Below are positions 11,948 to 29,130 of a stretch of DNA of 64,000 nucleotides, one piece after another. How positions within the stretch are numbered: position 1 is the first letter of the stretch; every line of letters starts with the position of its first letter. Position numbers and translations under genes: made by a program. The notes below the pieces were generated by a model, which did no database searches, had not been told where the DNA came from, and saw nothing but the letters and a program-made list of their open reading frames with translations. The DNA is from an uncultured Lachnospiraceae bacterium (GTDB lineage Bacteria > Bacillota > Clostridia > Christensenellales > UBA1242): contig CAYLHO010000002.1 in the NCBI GenBank assembly GCA_964383665.1, positions 138,306 through 202,305 on the forward strand. The letters run 5' to 3'.

Positions 11948-14900
11948 ATGAAGAAAATTATGATTTTTTCAATAATCCTAATGCCACTTATTGTTTTAGG
12001 AATTATGTTTCTTAGCGGGTCGATTGTTAAGATGTCAACATATCTTTATGTTGAATATATCGAATTTGTTGATGACGAAATTGTCCTTAACAAAACTTCA
12101 GGCGAAAATGTTTCCCATGCTCTTAAAGTTAACGTTTTCCCAGTTCTTGCAAACAACAAAGAAGTTGAATTTTGGAGTGCAAATGAGAATATAGTTTCGG
12201 TTGATGAAAACGGGAATTTAACAAGCAGAGATTTTGGCTCGACATATGTTTATGCAAAAAGCAAAGAAAACGGAGCGAAACAAGCAACTTGTAAGGTTGT
12301 TGTTACAAGCGAAAAAGTTCACAAAATTTGGGCGGAAAATTCAGTTTCAACAATGTATGTTGGCTCAACCCATCGTTTTAACGTTAAATATGCTCCTTTG
12401 GAAGCAAAGGAAGTTTCTTTTAACATAACTTCATCAAATCCAAGCGCGCTTTATGTTTCCCAGGACGGAGAACTTGTTGCAAGGGCAAAGGGAGCTTCAA
12501 CAATAACAATTTCTCTTAAAAGTGATCCAAACATAACCTGTTCGTTTGATGTTGATGTTAAAGTTAAGGCAGAGGGAATTTGGATTGAAGATTCGTCGTC
12601 GGTTACTTCGGCAAAAACAAGTTTCAGTTTCCCAGAAATTAAGTTTTCGCCTTCAACGGCGGAAGAAAAAATTTCCTATTTTTCAAGCGACTCCTCAATT
12701 GCAACTGTTAACAGCGAAGGGCAAATTCAATTTTTGAAAAGGGGAACTGTTGTTATAACTGCGAAAGCGGAAAACGTTAACGATGAGGTTATAAAATCAT
12801 ACACTTCAACTTTTGGATATTTCAAAAATGTTTCGTTCTCAACTCTTAACGAAAGGGAACTAAATTTTGAGGATTGGCAGAATTCAGATTTAAACTTGAT
12901 TTGGACGGGTTTCCCAGAAGACGGAAATTTGGAAAACATTTCGTTAGTAAGTTCGAACGAAAGCGTTGTTAAAGTTGAAAACGGAAAACTTAAAGTTGTT
13001 GGCGGCGGGGAGGCAACAATAACAATTGTTGCAAAAACCTCGGAAACGGAAACAACAACCGCTTCAATAACTCTTAATGTTAACAGAAAAATTGATTCAA
13101 TTTCTTTTGACCGTCCAAATTTCAGTTTTGTTTCGTCAAGGGCAATTGACCTTGCAACTGCGTTCCCAGCCGACGCAACAGAAAGAATTGAATATGAAAT
13201 TTCTAACACCGAAATTGCAACAGTTGAGAACGGGAAATTGGTTTTTTCGTCGGCTGTTTTAAACAATAAATGCGGAAAAGTTAGCATAACAGCAAAAACA
13301 AAAAGTGGACTTGCAAAAACAATAACTGTTGTCTATTTGGATTCCTCGGTTCAAAGAATTGACTTGGGAAATCAAGACCAATTAAATTTAACGCTTCCAA
13401 AAACCGGTGAACCTTCTCTTTCTTTTGCTGTTGTTTCAACTCGAGATGATTTGAACGATTTAAGCTTAAAAATTGAAAGTGGAAGCGATGTTTTAACTCA
13501 AAATGGTTATATTTTCACACTTAAAAACAACGGTAGCGCTGAAATTGGTGTCTATTTTAACGGCGAAACAAACCCAAGCAAAAGAATTGGTGTAAGCGTT
13601 AAGAAAGATGTTGAGGAAATTCAAAATATAAAAGTTTTTGCAACATGGGAAGGGCTCGATTCCAAACAATATTCTTCAAGCGAAAGAATTTATTCATCAA
13701 GCAAGGTTTTTGAAATTTCATATAATCTTTTCCCTTCCGGAACAACAAAAACAGAGGCGGATTTAGAAATTGTTAGCGGCGATGCTGCTCAAATTGTTGA
13801 CGGAAAAATTTGCTTTGTTAAAGCAGGAAAGGTTAGGGTTAGAATTTTTGCCGACCAAGCAAGCGAGGAGTTTGAAATTGAAAGCACGTTCATGCTTCCA
13901 AATGAAAATACGGTTGTAACAAAAAATGTTGAAATTTTTAAAGGTTCAAGCATTTCAATTTGGAGTTTGATTGAGGTTTTGCCAGAAAATGCCGACAGAA
14001 ATAACATAACATTCCAAACATCTTCAACGTCAATTTCAATTGATGAAAACGGGAACATTTTTGGCGTTTGTGGCGGGGAAGCAAAAATTGAAGTTTCAAT
14101 TCCAACTCCAAATCAAACAATTTCAAAGGAAATTAATGTTTTTGTTAAGGAAAATGCAGAAAAAGTTGTGGTTTTGGGCAATGAAATTGAATTTATAACC
14201 AATCAAACTTATAATTTTAAAAACAAATTTAAGGTTTATCCAGAAACTGCAAACCTTAAAACCCAAATAACATTTGGGGTTGAAAATGAAAATGTTGCCT
14301 ACATAAACTCCGAAGGAAACCTTGTTTTTAAAGAAGCGGGACGCTGCGTTGTTTATGCAAAACTTGAAAATGATTTCGTTGCTCGAATTTCTGTTGCATA
14401 TGTTGGAAACTCTCTTGTTTTAAGAGAAACAACAGCGAATGTTCTTGAGGGAACGAAATTTGTTGTTATTCCTTCAAGTGAGGTTCTTTCAAACGCGAAA
14501 TATAGCGATGATTTTATTTCGTCCTCGGAAAATATTTCTGTTTCAAACGGTCTTTTCATAACTGTTTTGGGAAGCGGAGAAGTTACTTTTGCCGGAGAAA
14601 CTTATTCGCTTAATTGCGTTAAAAAGATTACAAATGTTTCAATTTCGGCTGAAAATGCGTTGGACATCGACTTGCGAGGCGGGAAAAACATAACGGGTCT
14701 TTCAAGTTTGAAACTTGTTGGAAATGTTTTTGGCGCGCAAAGCGAATTTATTGAAACAACTTTTGCTTCCAGCAATTTGACCGTTGCAACGATAAGCCAA
14801 ACAGGTGTTTTAAGTTTCAACTCTGCCGGCGAGGTTGAGATAACTTTCGAGGCAAAATTTGTTGATTCTGTTTTGGGAGCAAACAAAATTTTGCATTCAA

Positions 14901-17900
14901 CAAAAATTAAAATTCAATCAACTTTTGGGGAGATTAATGAAATTGTTCCTTCTCAAACGGGGAAATTTGAATTCACAATTGACGACGAAAACCCGATAAA
15001 CAACATTATAAACATTTGCTCATATGTTAATTCCTTCCCAACGCAAGTTTCAATGACAAGCGAAAATGTTAAACTTGTTCTTTCAAACAACTTGCTTGCA
15101 AACGTTAATGGTCTTGAAATTCAATTTGTTAAAGGGGGAACTCTTGGCGTTGAAATTCAAATTAAACAAGGAGATAAATTCGTTCTTGCTTCAAAAATTG
15201 AATTTGAAATTAAGAAAAATGCCGAAGCAATTTATGTTAACGAAAAAGAAATTGTTAACATGAAAACATATTCATGGAACAAGTCAACTTTGTTCCTTAA
15301 TCCTGTTGCATTCCCAGAGGATTCAAACATCAACAACAAAATAACATGGGAAGTTGTTGAAAACAATGGGGTTGCGGAAGTTGATGCTTCAAAAAACAAA
15401 ATTGTTTTCAAAAAGACAAATGAAACAATTTCAATCAAGTTTACCCTTGGGGAAAACGAAAATATAAAAGAATTTGTTGTTTATCTTAAAGCAACAACAA
15501 TAACGTTTGAGGTTGATGTTGAAAGCGAAACATTTGTTGTCCCTTCAAAAGAACCTTTCACTTTTGTTTCCTCCGAAGGCGAAATTTTAAATTTAATTGT
15601 TAATTTTGGAAGCGAGTTCGCAAGTTTAAGAGAACTTTCGGAAGGTGTTTATGTTATTGATGAATCCTGCGTTGGAAACGTTTTAATAAGTGTTGATGGC
15701 AACGAGAGAACAGTTAAACTTGTTTCAACTTCCAACATAAACAAAATTGAAAACGTTGGAATTTCCGATGTTAAAATGAACGGCGAAACCGAAGTTGTTT
15801 CGGCAATTGAAAATGGTTTAAGCCTTGTAACTGCGTCGAAAGAGGTTGGAATTGAATATATCGTTCCAGTTGGCTATAACAAACTTGGGAACTTAATCAG
15901 TTGTCAAATTGCAACCTCAAATTCCGAAATCGCAACAATTGATGGAACAAAAGTTGTTTTCAAAAAAGCTGGAATTGCTAAAATAACATTAACAATTGCT
16001 TTCGACGATGCCTATGGCGAAAAGAGCATAGCTTTCAGTTTTGAAATTAGATCGACGTTTGGGAACATTGAGGAATTTAACGTTCCGCAAGATTCCTATT
16101 CGTTCCTCTATGACGAACTTGAGCAAAGCGAATTGACTTTCGACATTCTTTCATCGCTCACTCGCGTTTCGCCAAGTTATGGCGAAGTTTCGTTGCCAGA
16201 GGTTTCAATAAATAATAACTCTGTTATTAAATTCATAAACAATAAATTTGAAATTGTTGGGTCGGGAACGGCAAAAATTGAAATTAAATGGGGTAATGCA
16301 ACAAAAATAATCAATGTTGGAATCAGCAAGCAAATTGATGGACTTAAATTTGTTGATAACGGGCAGCCATTAACTCAAATTGTTATTAAAACAAAAACTT
16401 ATAACCTTAACTATGAAATTCTTGCAACAAACAGCGCGTTTGCTCCAACTTTGCGCGATGTTGAAATAACGGTTGTTGGCAATGCAACAATAAACGGAAA
16501 GGTTTTAACATTTAATGAGGTAAACGAAAAATGCGTTGTAACCGTTAAGGCAAAGGACGGAAATGCAACCGCGAACCTTGTTGTTGTTTGCGTAAGCGAA
16601 GATGTTAATGTTATTTCTGCAACAAGTTCTCTTAACAGAACTGTTGTTAAAGCGGGCGAAACAAACATTTTCAATTTCGATTTTGGTGAAACGTTTGTTG
16701 AGCTTTTAAATCCATCAAACGATTCAATCGTTTTCAATTCAACCCTTGGAACTTTTAAGGTAACAAAGGGGCTTGAAGGACAACTTCAATTAAGCAATGG
16801 ACAAATTATAACAATTATTGCAACTCAAGAAGTTGGGGGAATTAATTTCAAAACAGGAGCATGGGAAAGCGGAAAAATAACAGCTCTTGGAAGTTCTTCC
16901 GACGGAAAGGGGATTGACCTTAACGAAATTTATGGAGCAAGCATAAGCCCTGTTTCGGCAAGGACCGAAGCTGGAGCATATGTTGTTGAAATTCTTGTTG
17001 ACGATCCGTCGATTGCGTATGTTGAAAATGGTTTCTTATATTTCATTAAGCAAGGAGAAGTTACTTTAACATTTAAAGCGGGCAACGTTGAAGAAAAACG
17101 AAAGATTGAAAGCACACTGGGGTTCGCAAAGAGCGTTGAATTTGAAAATGCTGACGGACTGCAATTTGAATTTACAACAAGGGAATATGTTTTGCCTGAA
17201 AATATGTTCAGTGTTTTTCCTTCCGATGCATATATTATTGGCGCAACGTTCAAGTCGCTTGACGAATCTGTTTTCAAGGTTGAAAATGGAAAACTCATTT
17301 TTGTTGACGGCGGGACTGCAAACCTTGAACTTTCTGTTGAGATTTCGCGAACTGAAACAATAAGCATCACTAAAGAAGTTTATGTTGTTAATCGTGCAAC
17401 AGGAATTGACTTTTTCGATGGGGAAATTAAAGTTGGAAGAATTGTTAAAAATGCAAAACCAAATTCAACAATGGTTTTAAGTTATGTTATTAATTCGGTT
17501 GGCGTGCTTTCGCCATATAACGTTGTTTTCGAGTCGTCGAATGAAAGCGTTGCAACAATTGCAAATGGAATTGTAACCTTTGTTGGAAACGGAACAACAA
17601 CCATAACCGTTAAAGTTCAAAGCAAATTAAACGACGAAACCCAGTTTGATGCAGTTGCAAGCTTGAAAATTGTTAACAACGAAAATTATGAGATAAAAAG
17701 CATAACCCAAGCTGACAACGAAATCTATTTGGAAAGCGAAAGCGCGAACTTGGGAGTTATCTATCCAAAATTTAATATGTCAGATTTAGATTTTGAGTTT
17801 GTTCAACAAAGCGGATTGGACGTTGTTTCAATTGGCGAAAACGGGGAAATAAACAAAATTTCAGGCGGCGAGGCAACTGTTTTAATAAGAGCCGAAGGGT

Positions 17901-20326
17901 TCGAAAAACTTGTAACAATTTATGTTCATAAGAGAACTGGAATTATTCTTGAAAAAGAAAACGTTGTAACCTCAAAAACGAATTGGAAAATTGGCGTTGA
18001 ATTCAGCCCTTCCGATTCTCTTTCAAGAAAAACAATCAACTATGTTTCAAGCGATGAAAACGTTGCAACAGTTGAAAACGGAAACATTGTTTTCCTTAAA
18101 GAGGGAAGTGTTGTTATAACAATTAATGTTGTTTATAATGGCGAAATTGAAACTTCAAAACAATTCAAAATTCGAAGCACTTTTGGCAAGGTTGAAAGTT
18201 TCAACATTGACGTTTCAAGTTGGACGCTGAAAAACGGCGAGAGCAAGGTTATTTCAATAAGCAACGTATATCCAAGCGATTTCTCGGGCGAACTTTCGAT
18301 TTCTTCGAACAACGAAACGGCATTTAAACTTGAGAAATTAAGCGAGATAAGCTTTAAAGTTGAAGGCTTGAAGCGCGGAACTGGAACAATTGTTGTTAAG
18401 TTCAGTGGAAGCGATTCCTTTGCTCAAAATGTTTCAATTGAGGTTAAACAAATTTCAACATCTGTTGAGTTTCAACAAAACGGGAAAACCGTTTCAAGCA
18501 TTAAATCTTTTGCCAATGTTGTTGATTTAACAGCAATTGTTAAACCTTTCGATTCTAATGAAACCGCGGTTGAATGGGAAGTTGAAAGCGGGAATGCAAC
18601 CGTCAGCGAAAACGGGCAAGTTACATTTGTTGTTGGGGCATATGGCGAGGCAGTTATCGTTGCAAAAGCAAAGGACGGCGGAAGCCAAGGGAAGATAACA
18701 ATAACCTATGTTCAAGAAATTGATGGGTTCAACATTTCACATTCAGGAAAAACAGTTGCTTCGGGCGGAACAGTTTTCTTGGGGTGGAACGTTAACGACC
18801 TCATTTTGGGAATTGAAATTTTGCCAGCAACGCTTAAAGATTTTAACATGTTCGAATATTTCACAATAACTTCTTCAAACGGAAGCACTGCTCAAATTGA
18901 CGAGAATGGAAAAATTCAAATTGCAACTTTAAGCCACGAAACAAATCCATCATTTACTGATGTTATAACAATTAAATATAAGGATTTATATACTAAAACA
19001 ATTAATATTATAAGAGATGGAATTCAAAGAGTTGATTTTGGGAATCACGATAACGAACTCGATTCAACATATGGCTTGCAACAAATGAGATTGTTTGGGA
19101 ACAGGTCGTATTACGATGGAATCCAAAATTACTACCGAATGACTGTTAATGTTTATCCAAACAACAACCTTTCGTCAAACATCATTTGGGAAACTTCCAA
19201 CTCAAACGTTTCTGTTGTTAATGCGAACGGTTATGCTGATATCTATTTCAACAGCATTTCGGGAAGCACTGTTCAAGAAATTTATGATGATGATTTCAGC
19301 AAGGGCGAAATAACAGTTTATGCAAAAAATCAAGCCGGGGAACTCCTTTATTCCTACACTTTCCATATTGTTAATGCAGTTAACGTTTTCGATCAAGCAG
19401 GTTATGTTAACGGCGGAAGTGAAATTGTTTTGCAAAAGAGTTTGGGACATGACGACCAAGCGGCGCTCATTGAAAAAGGAAGTTATGCACGTCTTGACGC
19501 ATATGCTGCAAAAACAACCATTTTTGGAAATGGATTCTTAATTAACTTTGCCCACAGAAACAAAGACACAAGCGAAGCTTCCTATACAAACTATGAAAAC
19601 ATTCAAGTTAACATTAAAAATGCAATAAATTTAACAATCCAAGGCTCAAACTACGACAGCACGCGTGAGTCGTATAACATTGAACTTACGGGAACAGAAA
19701 AACTTTCCTATTGCGAAATTTACTATATGTATCGTTCGGTTGAAAAAACTTCGGGGAACATTTATGTTAAACGCTGTTTATTCAGAACGTTCAAGTCATC
19801 TGGAATAATTGGGTCGGCAAACGACACGAAAAACTTATATCTTGAGGACATAATCATGTTCGACGTTGGAACTCGTGCAATTGAACTCCAAAAAAATGGA
19901 ACAGCATATCTTAAAGGCTTCATCGATGTTTATAACTTCCAAAACAAAGATGCAATTAAAGAATACACATCAATTGGAGCAAGCACCATTATAAACAGGT
20001 TTAACGCAGGCAACATGGTTGTTGAAGTTAACGGCGAAAAATGGGTTAACATGGTTGGAATCTCTTCCAAAGGAACAGATTTAAAAATTTACTATTATAA
20101 TTACGATACGGGAGAATATGAATATAAAGAAAACGGGGACCACACTTCCGCATATGGCCTTACAAGAATAACTTATGGACTTGGAAGTTTGGGAATAACC
20201 GCTTGGTCCTATACGAATGGATCGCAACCGCATTTAACCTATGCCAACGAATTTAAAGATGACGGCTCACTTAATGTTGAATATATGATTTCAACAGTTC
20301 CAAAAATCAAACGTCTTACAACTTAA
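11948..20326 (+). CDS. giant (2792 aa) membrane-anchored surface protein with about 20-25 Big_2-type Ig-like repeats and a non-Ig C-terminal domain (possible beta-helix)
   Basis: GGGAGGAAAG SD 14 nt after the permease stop. N-terminal hydrophobic anchor MKKIMIFSIILMPLIVLGIMFLSG. The signature S[SN]xxxVATVxxxGxVxxxxxGxxxIT recurs throughout, for example SSDSSIATVNSEGQIQFLKRGTVVITAKA and SSDENVATVENGNIVFLKEGSVVITINV. The last ~440 aa lack this pattern. No LPXTG or choline/SLH motif was seen. Confidence 0.85.
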   Translation: MKKIMIFSIILMPLIVLGIMFLSGSIVKMSTYLYVEYIEFVDDEIVLNKTSGENVSHALKVNVFPVLANNKEVEFWSANENIVSVDENGNLTSRDFGSTYVYAKSKENGAKQATCKVVVTSEKVHKIWAENSVSTMYVGSTHRFNVKYAPLEAKEVSFNITSSNPSALYVSQDGELVARAKGASTITISLKSDPNITCSFDVDVKVKAEGIWIEDSSSVTSAKTSFSFPEIKFSPSTAEEKISYFSSDSSIATVNSEGQIQFLKRGTVVITAKAENVNDEVIKSYTSTFGYFKNVSFSTLNERELNFEDWQNSDLNLIWTGFPEDGNLENISLVSSNESVVKVENGKLKVVGGGEATITIVAKTSETETTTASITLNVNRKIDSISFDRPNFSFVSSRAIDLATAFPADATERIEYEISNTEIATVENGKLVFSSAVLNNKCGKVSITAKTKSGLAKTITVVYLDSSVQRIDLGNQDQLNLTLPKTGEPSLSFAVVSTRDDLNDLSLKIESGSDVLTQNGYIFTLKNNGSAEIGVYFNGETNPSKRIGVSVKKDVEEIQNIKVFATWEGLDSKQYSSSERIYSSSKVFEISYNLFPSGTTKTEADLEIVSGDAAQIVDGKICFVKAGKVRVRIFADQASEEFEIESTFMLPNENTVVTKNVEIFKGSSISIWSLIEVLPENADRNNITFQTSSTSISIDENGNIFGVCGGEAKIEVSIPTPNQTISKEINVFVKENAEKVVVLGNEIEFITNQTYNFKNKFKVYPETANLKTQITFGVENENVAYINSEGNLVFKEAGRCVVYAKLENDFVARISVAYVGNSLVLRETTANVLEGTKFVVIPSSEVLSNAKYSDDFISSSENISVSNGLFITVLGSGEVTFAGETYSLNCVKKITNVSISAENALDIDLRGGKNITGLSSLKLVGNVFGAQSEFIETTFASSNLTVATISQTGVLSFNSAGEVEITFEAKFVDSVLGANKILHSTKIKIQSTFGEINEIVPSQTGKFEFTIDDENPINNIINICSYVNSFPTQVSMTSENVKLVLSNNLLANVNGLEIQFVKGGTLGVEIQIKQGDKFVLASKIEFEIKKNAEAIYVNEKEIVNMKTYSWNKSTLFLNPVAFPEDSNINNKITWEVVENNGVAEVDASKNKIVFKKTNETISIKFTLGENENIKEFVVYLKATTITFEVDVESETFVVPSKEPFTFVSSEGEILNLIVNFGSEFASLRELSEGVYVIDESCVGNVLISVDGNERTVKLVSTSNINKIENVGISDVKMNGETEVVSAIENGLSLVTASKEVGIEYIVPVGYNKLGNLISCQIATSNSEIATIDGTKVVFKKAGIAKITLTIAFDDAYGEKSIAFSFEIRSTFGNIEEFNVPQDSYSFLYDELEQSELTFDILSSLTRVSPSYGEVSLPEVSINNNSVIKFINNKFEIVGSGTAKIEIKWGNATKIINVGISKQIDGLKFVDNGQPLTQIVIKTKTYNLNYEILATNSAFAPTLRDVEITVVGNATINGKVLTFNEVNEKCVVTVKAKDGNATANLVVVCVSEDVNVISATSSLNRTVVKAGETNIFNFDFGETFVELLNPSNDSIVFNSTLGTFKVTKGLEGQLQLSNGQIITIIATQEVGGINFKTGAWESGKITALGSSSDGKGIDLNEIYGASISPVSARTEAGAYVVEILVDDPSIAYVENGFLYFIKQGEVTLTFKAGNVEEKRKIESTLGFAKSVEFENADGLQFEFTTREYVLPENMFSVFPSDAYIIGATFKSLDESVFKVENGKLIFVDGGTANLELSVEISRTETISITKEVYVVNRATGIDFFDGEIKVGRIVKNAKPNSTMVLSYVINSVGVLSPYNVVFESSNESVATIANGIVTFVGNGTTTITVKVQSKLNDETQFDAVASLKIVNNENYEIKSITQADNEIYLESESANLGVIYPKFNMSDLDFEFVQQSGLDVVSIGENGEINKISGGEATVLIRAEGFEKLVTIYVHKRTGIILEKENVVTSKTNWKIGVEFSPSDSLSRKTINYVSSDENVATVENGNIVFLKEGSVVITINVVYNGEIETSKQFKIRSTFGKVESFNIDVSSWTLKNGESKVISISNVYPSDFSGELSISSNNETAFKLEKLSEISFKVEGLKRGTGTIVVKFSGSDSFAQNVSIEVKQISTSVEFQQNGKTVSSIKSFANVVDLTAIVKPFDSNETAVEWEVESGNATVSENGQVTFVVGAYGEAVIVAKAKDGGSQGKITITYVQEIDGFNISHSGKTVASGGTVFLGWNVNDLILGIEILPATLKDFNMFEYFTITSSNGSTAQIDENGKIQIATLSHETNPSFTDVITIKYKDLYTKTINIIRDGIQRVDFGNHDNELDSTYGLQQMRLFGNRSYYDGIQNYYRMTVNVYPNNNLSSNIIWETSNSNVSVVNANGYADIYFNSISGSTVQEIYDDDFSKGEITVYAKNQAGELLYSYTFHIVNAVNVFDQAGYVNGGSEIVLQKSLGHDDQAALIEKGSYARLDAYAAKTTIFGNGFLINFAHRNKDTSEASYTNYENIQVNIKNAINLTIQGSNYDSTRESYNIELTGTEKLSYCEIYYMYRSVEKTSGNIYVKRCLFRTFKSSGIIGSANDTKNLYLEDIIMFDVGTRAIELQKNGTAYLKGFIDVYNFQNKDAIKEYTSIGASTIINRFNAGNMVVEVNGEKWVNMVGISSKGTDLKIYYYNYDTGEYEYKENGDHTSAYGLTRITYGLGSLGITAWSYTNGSQPHLTYANEFKDDGSLNVEYMISTVPKIKRLTT

Positions 20327-25698: not shown

Positions 25699-26223
25699 AT
25701 GAAGTTAAAAGCTAAGTTGATCTCAACAATCGCTGCGTTTGCTATGGTTCTTTGCTTAACAATCGTTGGTGTTTGGGCAGCTGCTTCAGTTAAGGTAAAC
25801 GTAACTGGAACTGTTACATACTCAACTCAAGACGTTAACGTTAAAGTTGAAGGCTCAATCGCTGGTATTGTAGGCGCTAGCGAAAAAACTTTCACTCAAG
25901 AATGGGACGCTGATGACACAACCGGCGAAGCAACATGGGCTCTTGGAGACATCGCATTCGAAAAGAACGCACAAGTTGTTATCACATTGAAAGTTACAAA
26001 CCTCAGCACAGAAGATAACATCACAGCTACATTGTCAAACCAAGGCGCTGCTTCTGGAACAAACACAACAGCAGCTCTCGGAGCAACAACAACAGCAACA
26101 ATCAACGCTTCTGCTTCTGAAACAAAGAATTCACAAGAATTCACTTTCACAATCACTGTTGGTGACTGGAACAAAGCAGCAAGCTACACAATTGATCTTG
26201 ACTTAGATATCGTTAAGGCTTAA
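25699..26223 (+). CDS. small secreted T/A/N/G-rich protein with a SipW/TasA-type signal peptide (putative matrix or fibre subunit)
   Basis: 174 aa with a very strong SD (AAGGAGGGGG). Signal peptide MKLKAKLISTIAAFAMVLCLTIVGVWAAAS resembles the ...GGTWAAF... end of TasA-family signal peptides. The only cysteine lies in the signal peptide, so the mature part has none. Codon usage is atypical for the window (ATC 10 : ATT 2, AAC 9 : AAT 1, TTC 4 : TTT 1). Confidence 0.6.
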   Translation: MKLKAKLISTIAAFAMVLCLTIVGVWAAASVKVNVTGTVTYSTQDVNVKVEGSIAGIVGASEKTFTQEWDADDTTGEATWALGDIAFEKNAQVVITLKVTNLSTEDNITATLSNQGAASGTNTTAALGATTTATINASASETKNSQEFTFTITVGDWNKAASYTIDLDLDIVKA

Positions 26224-26430: not shown

Positions 26431-27168
26431 ATGAAAAGACTTTCGAAAGCATTTAATGTTATAACCGATGTCATTTTCTTTTTGGTAATGGGGTTGCTTA
26501 TTGTTTACCTTGTTATTTCATTCTCTGCTAAATTTTCTCATGGTGTTCCTTCCTATTTTGGCTATTCCTATGTTCGCGTTATGTCGCGCTCGATGGAGGC
26601 AAGCGGAATTTACAAGGGAGACATTGTTGTTCTTAAAAGAGTTAACGTTTCCGAAATTAAAGTTGGAGATGTTATTGCATACTATCTTTATGACGGCTCG
26701 CCGGTCCAATTCCCTGCAGATGGGGACGAACCTGAAGAAGTTTTGGACTATCCAACAAACCAAGAGTCTCATAAAACAACAATAATTTTCCACCAAGTTG
26801 TTTCCATTCGCGTTGATAAATACGGTCATCGCTGGTTTAGGACGTATGGAACAAGCAACATAAACACCGAAACAGGTAAACCAATTCTTGACCCATGGGT
26901 TCGCGGGGATTATGTTATTGGAATTTATAATCAAACATGGGTTGCAAGTGTTATTAAGTTCATAACCTCAACAGCCGGAATCATAACAATTGTTGTTGTT
27001 CCGTCGGCGCTTGTTGCGCTAATGCTTCTTTTCAGCATGATCGACACGGTTGACAAAATGATGAAAATGAAAAAACTTGCAGCAGCGCTTCCAACAACCT
27101 CGGGGCTTATTGAGGGTGAGGACAATCCGGACGCAGAAAAGCCGCCGGAAGAGCAAAAAGACGAATAG
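26431..27168 (+). CDS. sipW: signal peptidase I, SipW/archaeal-ER type (S26B), with a C-terminal TM segment and acidic tail
   Basis: 245 aa, GAGGGGG SD. N-terminal TM, catalytic-Ser box VMSRSMEAS (compare SGSMEP), GDIVVLKR, His box IIFHQVVSI. It also has an extra C-terminal TM (IITIVVVPSALVALMLLF) and an E/D/P-rich end. Confidence 0.75.
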   Translation: MKRLSKAFNVITDVIFFLVMGLLIVYLVISFSAKFSHGVPSYFGYSYVRVMSRSMEASGIYKGDIVVLKRVNVSEIKVGDVIAYYLYDGSPVQFPADGDEPEEVLDYPTNQESHKTTIIFHQVVSIRVDKYGHRWFRTYGTSNINTETGKPILDPWVRGDYVIGIYNQTWVASVIKFITSTAGIITIVVVPSALVALMLLFSMIDTVDKMMKMKKLAAALPTTSGLIEGEDNPDAEKPPEEQKDE

Positions 27169-27197
27169 AAAAAACGCTTTGATAAAAGCGTTTTTTT
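27169..27197. terminator. bidirectional intrinsic terminator between convergent genes
   Basis: A-run, stem CGCTTT / AAAGCG (27175-27190), loop GATA, T7 run. Confidence 0.75.
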
Positions 27198-28239
27198 AAA
27201 TCACATTGTTTTGAACCCTTTTAATCATTTGATTAATTTCCCTGTTTGCATTCATAACAATGATTTCTGTGTTTGGATTATCGGATTTCCAAACCCTAAA
27301 AATCTCATCGGCAAAGGCTTGACCAATTTTTGGAACCAAACGGAAATCAAGGCAAATTTCTTTAAACTTATTCATTCCTGTCATTAGGCGTCTTGCTTGC
27401 GAACGAGAAATGTAGATTGATTCACTTTCATTATATTCAAGGCGTTTAACTGAAATAATGGTTTTGCAAAAACCTTCATCTGGATCTGCAAATTGATTGA
27501 AAACTTCGCTTAAAGAAATTTTATTTGCAATGCTAATTTTGAATGCAACAGCTGTCCCTTTAAATTGCTTATTTTTTTGAACAATTGCTTTATCGTCGTC
27601 GGGTTTGGAAAGATTTGCGGTTGAGAATGTTAAGTCGTTTGCAAGAATTAAGAAATAGTCGGCGCATTTTGACGAAAAGAAAATTCCTTCTCCCGTGTGT
27701 GATTTTGGGTTCGTTGTAACTTTCCCTTTCATAAGTTCGAAAACCGAATGTTCAATATTTTCAAGATTAAATTTTCTTTTAATTTTCTCGAAAATTCCAA
27801 CCCCATTATCAATTACATAGGTTGTAACATCAACCGACGTTATGCTCATAATAACTTTAATTTCATTTCCTTCGGAATGTTCAATTGCGTTGTTAAAAAT
27901 TTCTGAATAGATATAATCAAAAATTTCTCGTGCATTTTGGGGGAGGAATGAAACTAAAGGTCGAACCTCGCTTAACGATTCAAATTCACTTATTTTTCCA
28001 ATTGAATATTTAAATTCCTTATCAACAGGAACAAGCGTAAGTTTTTGGGTTCTTCCAACTCGTTTTTTTCGAATAACATTATCATTTGAGAGCTTATTAA
28101 TAAGCTTATAAATTGCTTGAACTGAAACTCCAAATTCATTTGAAAGGTTATGGATTAATTCCGCATCTAAAAGATGTTGGGAAATATTAACTAAAATTTT
28201 TTCAATTAATGTGTTTTTATTTTCTTTACTTATCGACAT
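27196..28239 (-). CDS. wHTH + GHKL (HATPase_c, SpoIIAB-like) + STAS-like (DUF4325) fusion protein
   Basis: 347 aa, GGAG SD. N-terminal HTH LSNEFGVSVQAIYKLINKL. Bergerat-fold boxes: N box EIFNNAIEHS, G1 VIDNGVGI, G2 HTGEGIFF. The C-terminal SRSQARRL...DFRLVPKIGQAFADEIFRVW matches the DUF4325 STAS-like signature. Confidence 0.75.
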   Translation of the reverse strand: MSISKENKNTLIEKILVNISQHLLDAELIHNLSNEFGVSVQAIYKLINKLSNDNVIRKKRVGRTQKLTLVPVDKEFKYSIGKISEFESLSEVRPLVSFLPQNAREIFDYIYSEIFNNAIEHSEGNEIKVIMSITSVDVTTYVIDNGVGIFEKIKRKFNLENIEHSVFELMKGKVTTNPKSHTGEGIFFSSKCADYFLILANDLTFSTANLSKPDDDKAIVQKNKQFKGTAVAFKISIANKISLSEVFNQFADPDEGFCKTIISVKRLEYNESESIYISRSQARRLMTGMNKFKEICLDFRLVPKIGQAFADEIFRVWKSDNPNTEIIVMNANREINQMIKRVQNNVI

Positions 28240-28288
28240 GTTTTTTCTCCATTGTAATTATATCCCTTGTGTCAAGATATATAACTAA

Positions 28289-28408
28289 ATTGTAAACTTA
28301 AATTTAACAATTGTCAACTTAAATTTAACAATTGTAAACTTAACAAAGGTTAATTGTAAACTTAATGATGATTGATTGTAAACTTAAGGTCTTTAATTGT
28401 AAACTTAA
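28289..28408. repeat. six direct copies of the 13-bp motif ATTGTAAACTTAA, phased every 21-22 bp (putative operator or iteron array)
   Basis: Copies start at 28289, 28310 (variant ATTGTcAACTTAA), 28331, 28353, 28375 and 28396. The spacings are 21, 21, 22, 22 and 21 bp. Copies 1-3 belong to a longer 21-bp unit (…ATTTAACA spacer). The array lies between divergent genes. Confidence 0.9.
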
Positions 28409-28440
28409 TTTTGCACTTTTGCAATTTTAAACGATTTGTT

Positions 28441-28469
28441 TTGAAAAAAGGTTGTATATATTATATAAT
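28441..28469 (+). promoter_or_regulatory. promoter of the HD hydrolase gene
   Basis: TTGAAA (28441-28446), 17-nt spacer, TATAAT (28464-28469). It starts 33 bp after the last repeat copy. Confidence 0.55.
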
Positions 28470-28488: not shown

Positions 28489-29070
28489 ATGGACTATCAA
28501 GAAGAGTTTAAGAAAATTTTTAAGGAAAACATAAAGCGCGAAGGCTCTGACAAACTTTTGGAGTGGCTTGAAAAAAGTGATTTTTTCTCTGCGCCTGCGT
28601 CAACAAAATTCCACAGCGCCCATGAAGGCGGTCTTTGCGAGCACAGCGTTAAGGTTTACGAAAGATTTTTGAAACTTGTTAGAAACGAGTTTGGCGAAAA
28701 TTTTGAGGAAAAAATTTCAAAAGAAAGCATCGCATTAATTGCGCTTTGTCATGACGTTTGCAAAGTTAACACCTATAAAACAGACTTTCGAAATGTTAAG
28801 GAAAACGGGGCATGGGTTCAAAAGCCATATTATGCCGTTGACGACAAGTTGCCATATGGTCATGGCGAAAAATCGGTTTACATAATCAACGGATTCACTC
28901 GCCTTTCTCGCGAGGAAGCGCTTGCAATAAATTGGCACATGGGCGCGTTTGACCTTCGAGTTCAAGGCGGAAGTTATGCGCTTAAAGATGCATATTTGGC
29001 ATATCCAACCGCGCTTCTTCTCCACATTGCCGATGTTATGGCAACATATTTAGACGAGGAACAGGGTTAA
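28489..29070 (+). CDS. HD-domain phosphohydrolase (YhaM-like HD domain without the OB fold)
   Basis: 193 aa, AGGAAGGA SD. Motifs APASTKFHSAHEGGLCEHS ... ALCHDVCK ... YGHGEKS ... LLLHIADVMAT, consistent with an H..HD..D metal-binding set. Confidence 0.75.
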   Translation: MDYQEEFKKIFKENIKREGSDKLLEWLEKSDFFSAPASTKFHSAHEGGLCEHSVKVYERFLKLVRNEFGENFEEKISKESIALIALCHDVCKVNTYKTDFRNVKENGAWVQKPYYAVDDKLPYGHGEKSVYIINGFTRLSREEALAINWHMGAFDLRVQGGSYALKDAYLAYPTALLLHIADVMATYLDEEQG

Positions 29071-29076
29071 GAAAAA

Positions 29077-29101
29077 ACTTGGGTTATCCCAGGTTTTTTT
29101 C
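29077..29101 (+). terminator. intrinsic terminator after the HD gene
   Basis: Stem ACTTGGG / CCCAGGT (one G-U pair), loop TTAT, T8 run. Confidence 0.7.
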
Positions 29102-29130
29102 TTTTCAAATGGGAATTTATGTGATACAAT
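29102..29130 (+). promoter_or_regulatory. promoter directly abutting the divIB/ftsQ-like ATG (possible leaderless transcript)
   Basis: TTTTCA (29102-29107), 17-nt spacer, TGa-TACAAT (29122-29130). The ATG at 29137 is exactly 6 nt after the -10 box and no SD is present. Confidence 0.5.

Follow-up and report, generated by a model that had tools for sequence, protein, structure and literature searches.

The window analysed here, a stretch of 64,000 nucleotides (nt) in which all positions are counted from the first letter, carries on its reverse strand (27196-28239) a gene for a 347-residue protein that joins a winged helix-turn-helix (wHTH) domain, a GHKL ATP-binding domain and a STAS-like domain in one chain, with an array of phased direct repeats just upstream. 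What is new here is a single-chain variant of GHKL-kinase/STAS regulation, represented by a very large uncharacterised family with a clear operator. We consider it fairly probable that the gene and its own upstream repeats form an autonomous autorepressor cassette gated by ATP and the STAS-like domain. That the wHTH recognises the upstream repeats is highly probable from the comparative evidence; the gating by ATP and the STAS-like domain is a more tentative proposal.

Pairs of a GHKL kinase and a STAS protein have long been viewed as sigma-factor switches, until work from 2026 revealed that immune operons and a toxin are under their control (PMC13373217). The present family adds a much larger, cross-phylum, single-chain relative that has neither a partner gene nor a target operon. 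The phospho-serine that every known version relies on is missing from the family, which must therefore work differently.

Domain architecture of the protein

A sequence-only reading of this stretch had described the gene product as a wHTH, a SpoIIAB-like GHKL ATPase and a DUF4325 (STAS-like) domain in one polypeptide, and Pfam, AlphaFold and Foldseek together showed this three-domain assignment to be correct. The open reading frame (ORF) begins with an ATG that has GGAG in front of it, and its parts are as follows.

27196-28239, reverse strand: coding sequence of the wHTH-GHKL-STAS-like protein, 347 amino acids, from the ORF list (stop codon at 27196-27198)
28003-28170, reverse strand: wHTH domain, residues ~24-79, from the AlphaFold secondary structure, weak Pfam HTH matches and hhalign to the CapS wHTH
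27520-27951, reverse strand: GHKL (Bergerat) ATP-binding domain, residues ~97-240, from Pfam, Foldseek and invariant residues
27199-27513, reverse strand: STAS-like DUF4325 domain, residues ~243-347, from PF14213, Foldseek to RsbV and hhalign to VapS

Invariance of residues was judged on an alignment of 76 homologues, and the same 76 sequences underlie the AlphaFold model (predicted local distance difference test score, pLDDT, 89.3; predicted template modelling score, pTM, 0.85). In the model, three helices form a bundle that bears a beta-hairpin wing, the GHKL core is of the alpha/beta type, and alpha and beta elements alternate in the C-terminal unit. Within the wHTH, helices were predicted at residues 26-36 and 40-52 and wing strands at 56-61 and 64-69, and several weak HTH-family matches in Pfam cover residues 27-69. 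The recognition helix comprises residues 40-52 (SVQAIYKLINKL), and the segment GVSVQAIYKLINKL (residues 37-50) corresponds to helix 3 of the wHTH, followed by the predicted beta wing.

The features that define a GHKL/Bergerat domain were found on a SpoIIAB-like fold: an N box with the Mg-binding Asn (NNAIEHS), a G1 box of the form DxGxG (DNGVGI) and a G2 box (TGEGIFF), together with a lid that carries an invariant KGK-TT motif. Ten residues of this domain are invariant (N116, N117, H121, D144, G146, G148, K171, G172, K173 and G183). All motifs quoted in the sequence-only reading were found, and the majority of their residues show no or almost no variation: NNAIEHS contains N116, N117 and H121, DNGVGI contains D144, G146 and G148, TGEGIFF contains G183, F187 and F188, and GQAFADEIFRVW contains Q307, F309, D311, E312, R315 and V316. 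In the family alignment, the invariant lid motif reads ELxKGKxTT (residues 168-176), and a further invariant motif, SRSQAxR (residues 278-284), opens the STAS-like domain.

The profile searches that the sequence-only reading had proposed as a check placed the C-terminal domain well above threshold in PF14213 (DUF4325; 42.7 bits against a gathering cut-off of 23, E 4.7e-11, residues 281-334), and its invariant motifs are SRSQA-R and LDF..V..IGQAFADE. For the central domain, the window protein itself stayed just below the HATPase_c cut-off (23.4 bits against 26.4, E 8.4e-5; HATPase_c_2 2.4e-3; residues ~100-195), and relatives in the family clear the cut-offs of both HATPase_c and HATPase_c_2. 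When the model was compared with the Protein Data Bank (PDB) by Foldseek, the top matches were SpoIIAB chains (1til_E, 1l0o_A and 1tid_A) at E ~1e-6, the best having an E of 1.7e-6 and a target-normalised template modelling (TM) score of 0.80. The C-terminal ~80 residues matched the RsbV chains 6m37_A and 6m36_G with a root-mean-square deviation of 1.9 Å over 75-81 columns.

A large and widespread family

We define the family as a ~345-residue wHTH-GHKL-DUF4325 chain with at least three phased direct repeats (period 21/22 base pairs, bp) directly upstream. The window gene falls within this definition, having a full-length protein and 6+1 repeats at 21-22 bp of which the proximal three show the family geometry. 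More than 6,463 clusters at 90% identity have equal length and architecture, and an exhaustive profile search, clustered at 50% identity, gave at least 1,254 clusters at a threshold of E<=1e-30 and 2,705 at E<=1e-10. Nearly all of the 50%-identity clusters are 335-365 residues long and match end to end.

More than 568 carriers were found in data with one genome per species, and these include Proteobacteria, Acidobacteria, Chloroflexi, Patescibacteria, Cyanobacteria, Planctomycetes, Spirochaetes and Firmicutes. Their identity to the query is flat at about 34-41%, and this flat, patchy identity across phyla suggests that the family has spread horizontally. Source annotations call the members merely 'DUF4325 domain-containing', 'STAS-like domain-containing' or 'anti-sigma regulatory factor'. 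In the searchable literature the function of the wHTH-GHKL-DUF4325 family is undescribed and DUF4325 is mentioned just in passing, which bears out the earlier statement that no function has been established. When longer representatives were scanned for effector fusions, no added known domain was seen except in one case with an RHS repeat. In this single protein (P0251, 684 residues) the full wHTH-GHKL-DUF4325 module follows an N-terminal region containing the repeat, and it is either RHS-tip cargo or a gene-calling fusion.

Phased direct repeats accompany the gene

The sequence-only reading had pointed to a striking repeat array upstream of the gene. This array is real, and so is the link between protein and repeats, as the repeats accompany the gene across phyla.

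28288-28408, reverse strand: six direct repeats TTAAGTT(T/G)ACAATT (in gene orientation), from repeat searches
28395-28408, 28374-28387, 28352-28365, 28330-28343, 28309-28322 and 28288-28301: the six repeat units
28270-28275, reverse strand: TTGACA of a degenerate seventh repeat (cTTGACAcaa), read from the sequence, in phase at 21 bp

The repeat unit of the array, AATTGTAAACTTAA, occurs in six copies with a period of 21-22 bp (spacings in order 21, 22, 22, 21 and 21 bp). At no more than one mismatch, eight matches were observed against 1.68 expected, a count that none of 100 shuffles reached, and the array is the sole phased cluster of such sites within the window. The repeat also precedes both syntenic orthologues (L005 and L008) and a 45% homologue in an unrelated context (L010), showing that it travels with the gene. 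At the start of the L010 contig, positions 1-50 resemble part of a tRNA gene and could mark an integration site.

To survey the operator across the family, 80 genomic homologue loci from many phyla were subjected to a motif-agnostic repeat search in the 300 nt upstream of the gene. Most loci had (G)GTTGACAA(T) three times at 21-22 bp, and the family consensus repeat is GGTTGACAAT, present as three direct copies that are typically 21 and then 22 bp apart and lie just before the start codon. A weight matrix was then built from the family sites and the best phased triplet was scored in the 160 nt upstream. Positions that the seed had not forced were informative too: 71% of sites had G at -1, 93% had A at +6 and 69% had T at +7. 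The best phased triplet had a median score of 34.2 bits; random windows at the same loci averaged -6.7 bits, with a 99th percentile of 7.5 and a top score of 10. It exceeded the control 99th percentile in 72/80 loci and every control, including reverse-complement and in-gene windows, in 52/80.

The window array has 6-7 copies as against three in most of the family. By sequence comparison, the window triplet is expanded to six full repeats and one degenerate repeat, reaching towards a divergent gene for an HD-type hydrolase. Between the distal operator repeat and the promoter of that gene lies an 8-bp tandem repeat (TTTTGCAN, 2.8 copies, 28407-28428).

The recognition helix sorts with the repeat variant in at least five clades:

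helix SRQAVNKH: repeat GGTTGACAAT
helix SKQAASRH with a GKGN wing: repeat GTTGTCGAT
helix TPQAV(L/S)LH: repeat CTTTAAAATA
helix SRQRAH(R/Q/W/V)Y: repeat GGGTTTACAA
helix SRQ(S/T)IA(A/T)RL: repeat GCTTTACAT
helix S(V/T)QA(I/V)Y(K/N)L, the clade of the window protein: repeat TAAGTT(T/G)ACAAT

The earlier proposal that the protein binds its upstream repeats thus has strong comparative support in the co-variation of helix and repeat, which we regard as good evidence for cognate recognition, short of proof. It also offers a small natural specificity code for this wHTH. A further clade with a TKPTV..KY helix (L013, L015, L035, L061 and L086) has no triplet in the ~110 nt upstream that were searched. 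It carries a single conserved TTTACA -35 hexamer that overlaps a TTTACA/TGTAAA palindrome (TTTACAttttGTAAA), which points to a change, inside the family, from head-to-tail binding to binding as a dimer.

The operator doubles as a promoter

TTGACA is the consensus of the -35 hexamer, and (G/T)ACAAT is -10-like. With a period of 21/22 bp, each -10-like hexamer falls 17/18 nt after the preceding -35-like hexamer, so that the array forms a chain of promoter matches.

28289-28317, reverse strand: best sigma-70-like promoter, TTGACA-17-TACAAT, 11/12 matches, from a promoter scan

In this best match, the -35 hexamer TTGACA (28317-28312) comes from repeat 5 and the -10 hexamer TACAAT (28294-28289) from repeat 6, with a spacer of 17 nt. 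Five further chained matches from repeat to repeat were found on the same strand. We then compared the three repeats of the family triplet (R1, R2 and R3) in 49 loci.

Exact TTGACA: R1 40/49, R2 27/49, R3 23/49 (R1 versus R3, p 6e-4)
T at hexamer position 3 (TACAAT): R1 5/49, R2 17/49, R3 11/49 (R1 versus R2, p 0.007)
T at +7 (final position of the -10-like hexamer): R1 34/49, R2 43/49, R3 29/49

The spacing was 21 bp between R1 and R2 in 33/49 loci and 22 bp between R2 and R3 in 42/49 (p 8e-9), and R3 starts at a median of 24 nt ahead of the start codon. The simplest reading of this pattern is that R1 would serve as the -35 element and R2 as the -10 element, with R3 inside a leader of ~30 nt, at ~+8 to +16. 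In the window these roles are held by repeats 5 and 6 and the degenerate seventh repeat, and four extra copies lie upstream. The predicted transcription start is near 28282, and the degenerate seventh repeat falls at ~+8 to +13 of the inferred transcript, the R3 position of the family triplet, and is kept in L005 and L008.

Relation to known GHKL/STAS systems

Two recently described systems provide the closest context. In one, single-stranded DNA (ssDNA) activates the HTH-STAS-GHKL kinase CapK, and CapS, a STAS-wHTH autorepressor, loses its dimeric state when Ser54 is phosphorylated; in the other, VapKSC, the STAS antitoxin VapS lets go of a PIN toxin when VapK phosphorylates it on Ser48, and the system gives protection against a phage (Chambers et al., EMBO J 2026, PMC13373217). 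The earlier statement that known modules keep GHKL and STAS as separate proteins holds for SpoIIAB/SpoIIAA and RsbW/RsbV, but now needs CapK/CapS and VapKSC as context. The sequences of CapK, CapS, VapK and VapS were taken from the supplement of PMC13373217 and compared with the family.

HTH, STAS and anti-sigma-type GHKL domains are common to CapK/CapS and the family, and the CapK GHKL domain also resembles SpoIIAB. Profile comparisons gave only weak similarity at the level of single domains: the family wHTH aligned with the CapS wHTH at E 3.3e-4 (hhalign), and the N and G1 boxes matched CapK at E 2.4e-4 and VapK at E 1.9e-3. CapS, moreover, binds its own promoter through its wHTH and oligomerises along the DNA, a logic that we propose the window protein shares. 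Against this, CapK/CapS are encoded by two genes in the order HTH-STAS-GHKL and STAS-wHTH, whereas the family has one chain in the order wHTH-GHKL-STAS. The CapS STAS domain is not DUF4325 and has Ser54 as phospho-acceptor, where the family has Gln. The CapS dimer binds TTAA palindromes, in contrast to the direct GTTGACAAT repeats at 21/22 bp, and capKS lies upstream of immune operons while the family has no conserved neighbour. The window gene is a single ORF, not a two-gene pair, and the neighbours of the family are heterogeneous and show no enrichment for defence genes. The lysines with which CapK contacts ssDNA sit in a YKGKRR motif, elsewhere in the GHKL domain than the KGK motif of the family.

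VapS is a true DUF4325 protein (E 2.7e-17), unlike CapS and CapK, so the C-terminal domain of the window protein belongs to the same Pfam family as VapS. The N box of VapK (EIYANSFEHS) likewise resembles that of the family (EIFNNAIEHS). VapKSC nevertheless consists of three separate proteins including a PIN toxin, and no PIN gene or other toxin partner lies beside the window gene, nor does a PIN gene recur in the 80 loci. Furthermore, VapS is phosphorylated on Ser48 to release the toxin where the family has an invariant Gln, and neither VapK nor VapS comes with a DNA-binding wHTH and an operator for it. SpoIIAB/SpoIIAA and RsbW/RsbV supply the best structural matches, SpoIIAB for the GHKL domain (TM 0.80) and RsbV for the STAS-like domain (1.9 Å). 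They differ in being separate proteins without a DNA-binding domain, with a sigma factor as their target and a PP2C phosphatase to reset them, and their STAS serine is essential whereas it is missing in the family. From these sequence comparisons, the family is best described as a single-chain rearrangement of related part types, not as a member of CapK/CapS or VapKSC.

The phospho-site deserves separate attention.

27319-27321, reverse strand: codon of Gln307, aligned with VapS Ser48 (TTG on the forward strand, CAA on the reverse strand)

In hhalign, residues 289-304 aligned without gaps to VapS 30-45 (E 6.8e-4), and an extension of this block by three residues puts Gln307 opposite VapS Ser48. 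The motifs around Gln307 agree (ICLDFRLVPKIGQAF versus VILDFSNVKMFASPF, and the classic STAS motif LNLEDLSFMDSSG), from which we infer that LDFxGVxxIGQAF corresponds to LDLsxVxFiDSSG. Gln307 is invariant across the 76 sequences, with Ala or Gly as the next residue. Where switching of the SpoIIAB/SpoIIAA type has a phosphorylatable Ser/Thr, namely at the N-terminus of STAS helix 2, the family therefore has Gln307. Because this Gln is invariant at the canonical phospho-serine position, the switch would not be the classical Ser-phosphorylation of SpoIIAA, RsbV, CapS or VapS, and a phosphorylation switch of the SpoIIAA/RsbV type at the canonical site is unlikely. The sequence-only reading had suggested an intramolecular switch controlled by ATP or phosphorylation; the phosphorylation part of this, in its classical form, is made unlikely by the invariant Gln307.

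Other bridges to canonical STAS domains gave nothing significant, whether by hhalign of the family against SpoIIAA alone or a SpoIIAA alignment, or by a hidden Markov model search of PDB sequences. As these direct bridges to SpoIIAA failed, the relationship to canonical STAS is at the level of the fold only, and the sequence bridge to STAS came solely via VapS. VapK's N-terminal STAS domain gave no alignment with the C-terminal domain of the window protein.

Proposed mechanism

Sequence comparison gives the wHTH a cognate operator of direct repeats two helical turns apart, and the repeats themselves read as the promoter. In the cassette that we propose, at least three protomers would line up head to tail along one DNA face, where they would cover the -35 element, the -10 element and the early leader and block RNA polymerase, resulting in tight autorepression. 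Direct repeats require a translational (head-to-tail) assembly, and a contact from the GHKL domain of one protomer to the STAS-like domain of its neighbour would supply it. Oligomer formation would then depend on which nucleotide state the GHKL domain is in and on how it contacts the STAS-like domain. The switch is more likely a reversible docking that depends on ATP/ADP or a ligand; alternatively, the kinase may have a different target, be it a second site or a separate protein. By analogy with CapK and VapK one may guess at stress as the input, signalled for instance by ssDNA. A GHKL kinase acting with a STAS-wHTH autorepressor provides a precedent (PMC13373217).

A different group of winged-helix proteins offers a parallel for the DNA-binding mode that we envisage. 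Among autorepressors whose phased direct repeats overlap their own promoter, proteins of the OmpR/PhoB type read the repeats head to tail on one DNA face; they are receiver-driven response regulators with a spacing of one helical turn. The repeats of the present family are two turns apart, and its control module is GHKL plus STAS instead of a receiver domain.

Several points weigh against the autorepressor cassette or parts of it. The canonical triplet is missing in 8/80 genomic loci, in the TKPTV-helix subgroup and in most of the more divergent viral copies. The covariation groups are also phylogenetic clades, so that they amount to roughly five independent events. The transcription start sites were placed by consensus matches alone. 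Concerning the gating, the compact AlphaFold monomer (pTM 0.85) fits a GHKL-STAS contact in cis equally well as one in trans. The equivalence of Gln307 and Ser48 comes from the short hhalign block and three ungapped residues, together with agreement of motif and topology but no residue-by-residue superposition, and the invariant Ser278, Ser280, Thr175, Thr229 and Thr260 remain possible phospho-acceptors.

The conserved operator, with three GTTGACAAT repeats at 21 and 22 bp doubling as -35, -10 and leader site, gives an experimental handle on the autorepressor cassette. One purified protein and a 70-bp DNA fragment suffice to probe the effects of ATP, ADP, ssDNA or ligands on binding. The cassette may also serve as a compact, broad-host, self-limiting expression module.

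Alternative explanations

One alternative, compatible with an autorepressor cassette though rather unlikely in its own right, is that the gene is a single-gene stress or anti-phage module with a logic akin to CapK/CapS and VapKSC, in which the protein is both sensor and effector and is kept poised by self-repression. The domain types shared with CapK, VapK and VapS, the anti-phage activity of VapKSC (PMC13373217) and the patchy cross-phylum distribution at a flat ~35-40% identity speak for it. So do relatives on 58 uncultivated viral or prophage contigs, where they take accessory-gene positions. These contigs (L092-L149), out of 2.9 million in IMG/VR, encode relatives at 30-39% identity, and the neighbours are integrases, repressors, endolysins, small terminases and tail fibres, which are typical accessory slots of temperate phages and compatible with a role in defence or lysogenic conversion. 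Of the divergent viral homologues, 10/53 were above background in a triplet scan with the canonical motif, a scan that performs poorly on them. Several viral copies have variant phased repeats, for example AGTAGCAAGT twice at 22 bp in L146.

By contrast, tblastn found no match in 50,697 GenBank phage records (INPHARED) or 72,556 plasmids (PLSDB). No PADLOC model was matched by the protein, the only hit covering just the HTH portion of a CARF-associated model. The protein has no recognisable effector domain, longer relatives add none that is known, and in the lineage of the window the gene has a stable synteny among housekeeping genes. All-against-all clustering of ORFs within ±6 kb revealed no conserved partner gene in the 80 loci, where scattered generic ABC transporters recur, and among the 142 immediately flanking genes no Pfam or PADLOC family occurred more than twice. 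The sequence-only reading had raised linkage to defence islands, for which the PADLOC census of these flanking genes gave no enrichment.

The divergent HD gene suggests a second possibility, namely that in this lineage the protein is mainly a local regulator of this gene and that the extra repeats extend repression to its promoter.

28489-29070, forward strand: divergent gene for an HD-type phosphohydrolase, 193 amino acids (Pfam HD 21.1 bits, cut-off 22)

This gene, which the sequence-only reading had correctly recognised, encodes a protein that matches the phage family phrog_28876 ('metal-dependent phosphohydrolase') over its full length (1.1e-48). It is monocistronic, with its own promoter (28441-28469) and its own terminator hairpin (29069-29103). 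The gene pair and the expanded array are kept together in three related species, and the 6-7 repeat copies contrast with the three in most of the family. The distal repeat stops 32 bp short of the HD -35 hexamer, however, and linkage to the HD gene is restricted to the window and the two syntenic orthologues, with 0/80 other loci showing it. The linkage that the sequence-only reading had proposed to look for among homologues is lineage-specific, and we judge regulation of the HD gene unlikely.

Classical partner switching within one chain, in which the GHKL domain phosphorylates the serine of the fused STAS domain and thereby opens or closes the DNA-binding domain, is improbable. Its attraction is that the GHKL domain is closest to the Ser kinase and anti-sigma factor SpoIIAB and the C-terminal domain to RsbV, that the ATP-binding residues are invariant, and that such phosphorylation controls DNA binding or toxin release in CapK/CapS and VapK/VapS (PMC13373217). 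Gln307, invariant and followed by Ala or Gly at the position of the VapS phospho-serine, argues against it, as does the finding that neither a linked sigma factor nor a PP2C phosphatase, the neighbours of a SpoIIAB/SpoIIAA-type switch, recurs in the 80 loci.

We also give little credence to the idea that the repeats are mere tandem sigma-70 promoters for high or host-independent expression which the protein does not bind. Each adjacent repeat pair does score as a promoter, and the TTxACA / xAxAAT character is kept in all repeat variants. Conservation extends past both hexamers, however, to G at -1 and A at +6, and where the recognition helix and wing change, the repeat variant changes with them. 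Besides, R3 is too near the start codon to serve as a -35 element, and a promoter alone does not need a three-fold phasing with fixed 21/22 bp asymmetry across phyla.

The promoter-like character of the operator also admits a long shot: the family could be a portable, host-independent single-gene effector that targets the sigma-70 promoter consensus itself. If this were true, the protein at low level would be kept in check through its cooperative head-to-tail assembly on the triple-repeat promoter of its own gene until a stress or infection signal, acting via the GHKL/STAS module, released it to accumulate. Near-consensus -35/-10 promoters would then be occupied genome-wide, with strong phage early promoters among the targets, or sigma-70 would be trapped in an anti-sigma-like manner. 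Transcription would shut down or the cell would become dormant, and this would amount to a new form of innate defence or stress arrest.

Finally, six direct repeats with a 21-22 bp period beside a wHTH gene bear a superficial likeness to the iterons of a replication origin with a Rep-like initiator, a reading that is effectively refuted by the GHKL plus STAS fold, the lack of a family match among the 72,556 plasmids, the unrelated chromosomal contexts and the fact that the repeats overlie promoter hexamers whose distance from the start codon is fixed; an iteron-type replicon was accordingly rejected.

The surrounding locus

The gene order ABC-ABC / 174-aa / 245-aa / gene / HD / FtsQ-like / FtsA / FtsZ is the same in the window and in the two orthologues of 70% and 56% identity. 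As these orthologues occupy the matching place, the locus is stably inherited in this lineage and is not a recent insertion. Together with the unremarkable GC content, this speaks against the 'small accessory pocket' in which the sequence-only reading had placed the gene. Co-transcription of the HD gene with ftsQAZ was considered and rejected, given a strong hairpin with a T-run that is followed by a separate extended -10 before ftsQ.

27168-27197, both strands: bidirectional terminator-like hairpin, common with the convergent upstream gene, from RNA folding

This hairpin has folding energies of -12.1 and -14.1 kcal/mol with z ~-4.3 on both strands, and it was not called by a simple terminator scan. 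The convergent neighbour encodes the 245-residue protein (26431-27168, forward strand), in which Pfam detected no signal-peptidase domain, leaving its earlier 'sipW' label unconfirmed. The other half of that presumed sipW pair, the 174-residue protein (25699-26223, forward strand), had just a weak Big_5 match in Pfam. Further upstream in the window lies a giant ORF of 2,792 amino acids (11948-20326, forward strand).

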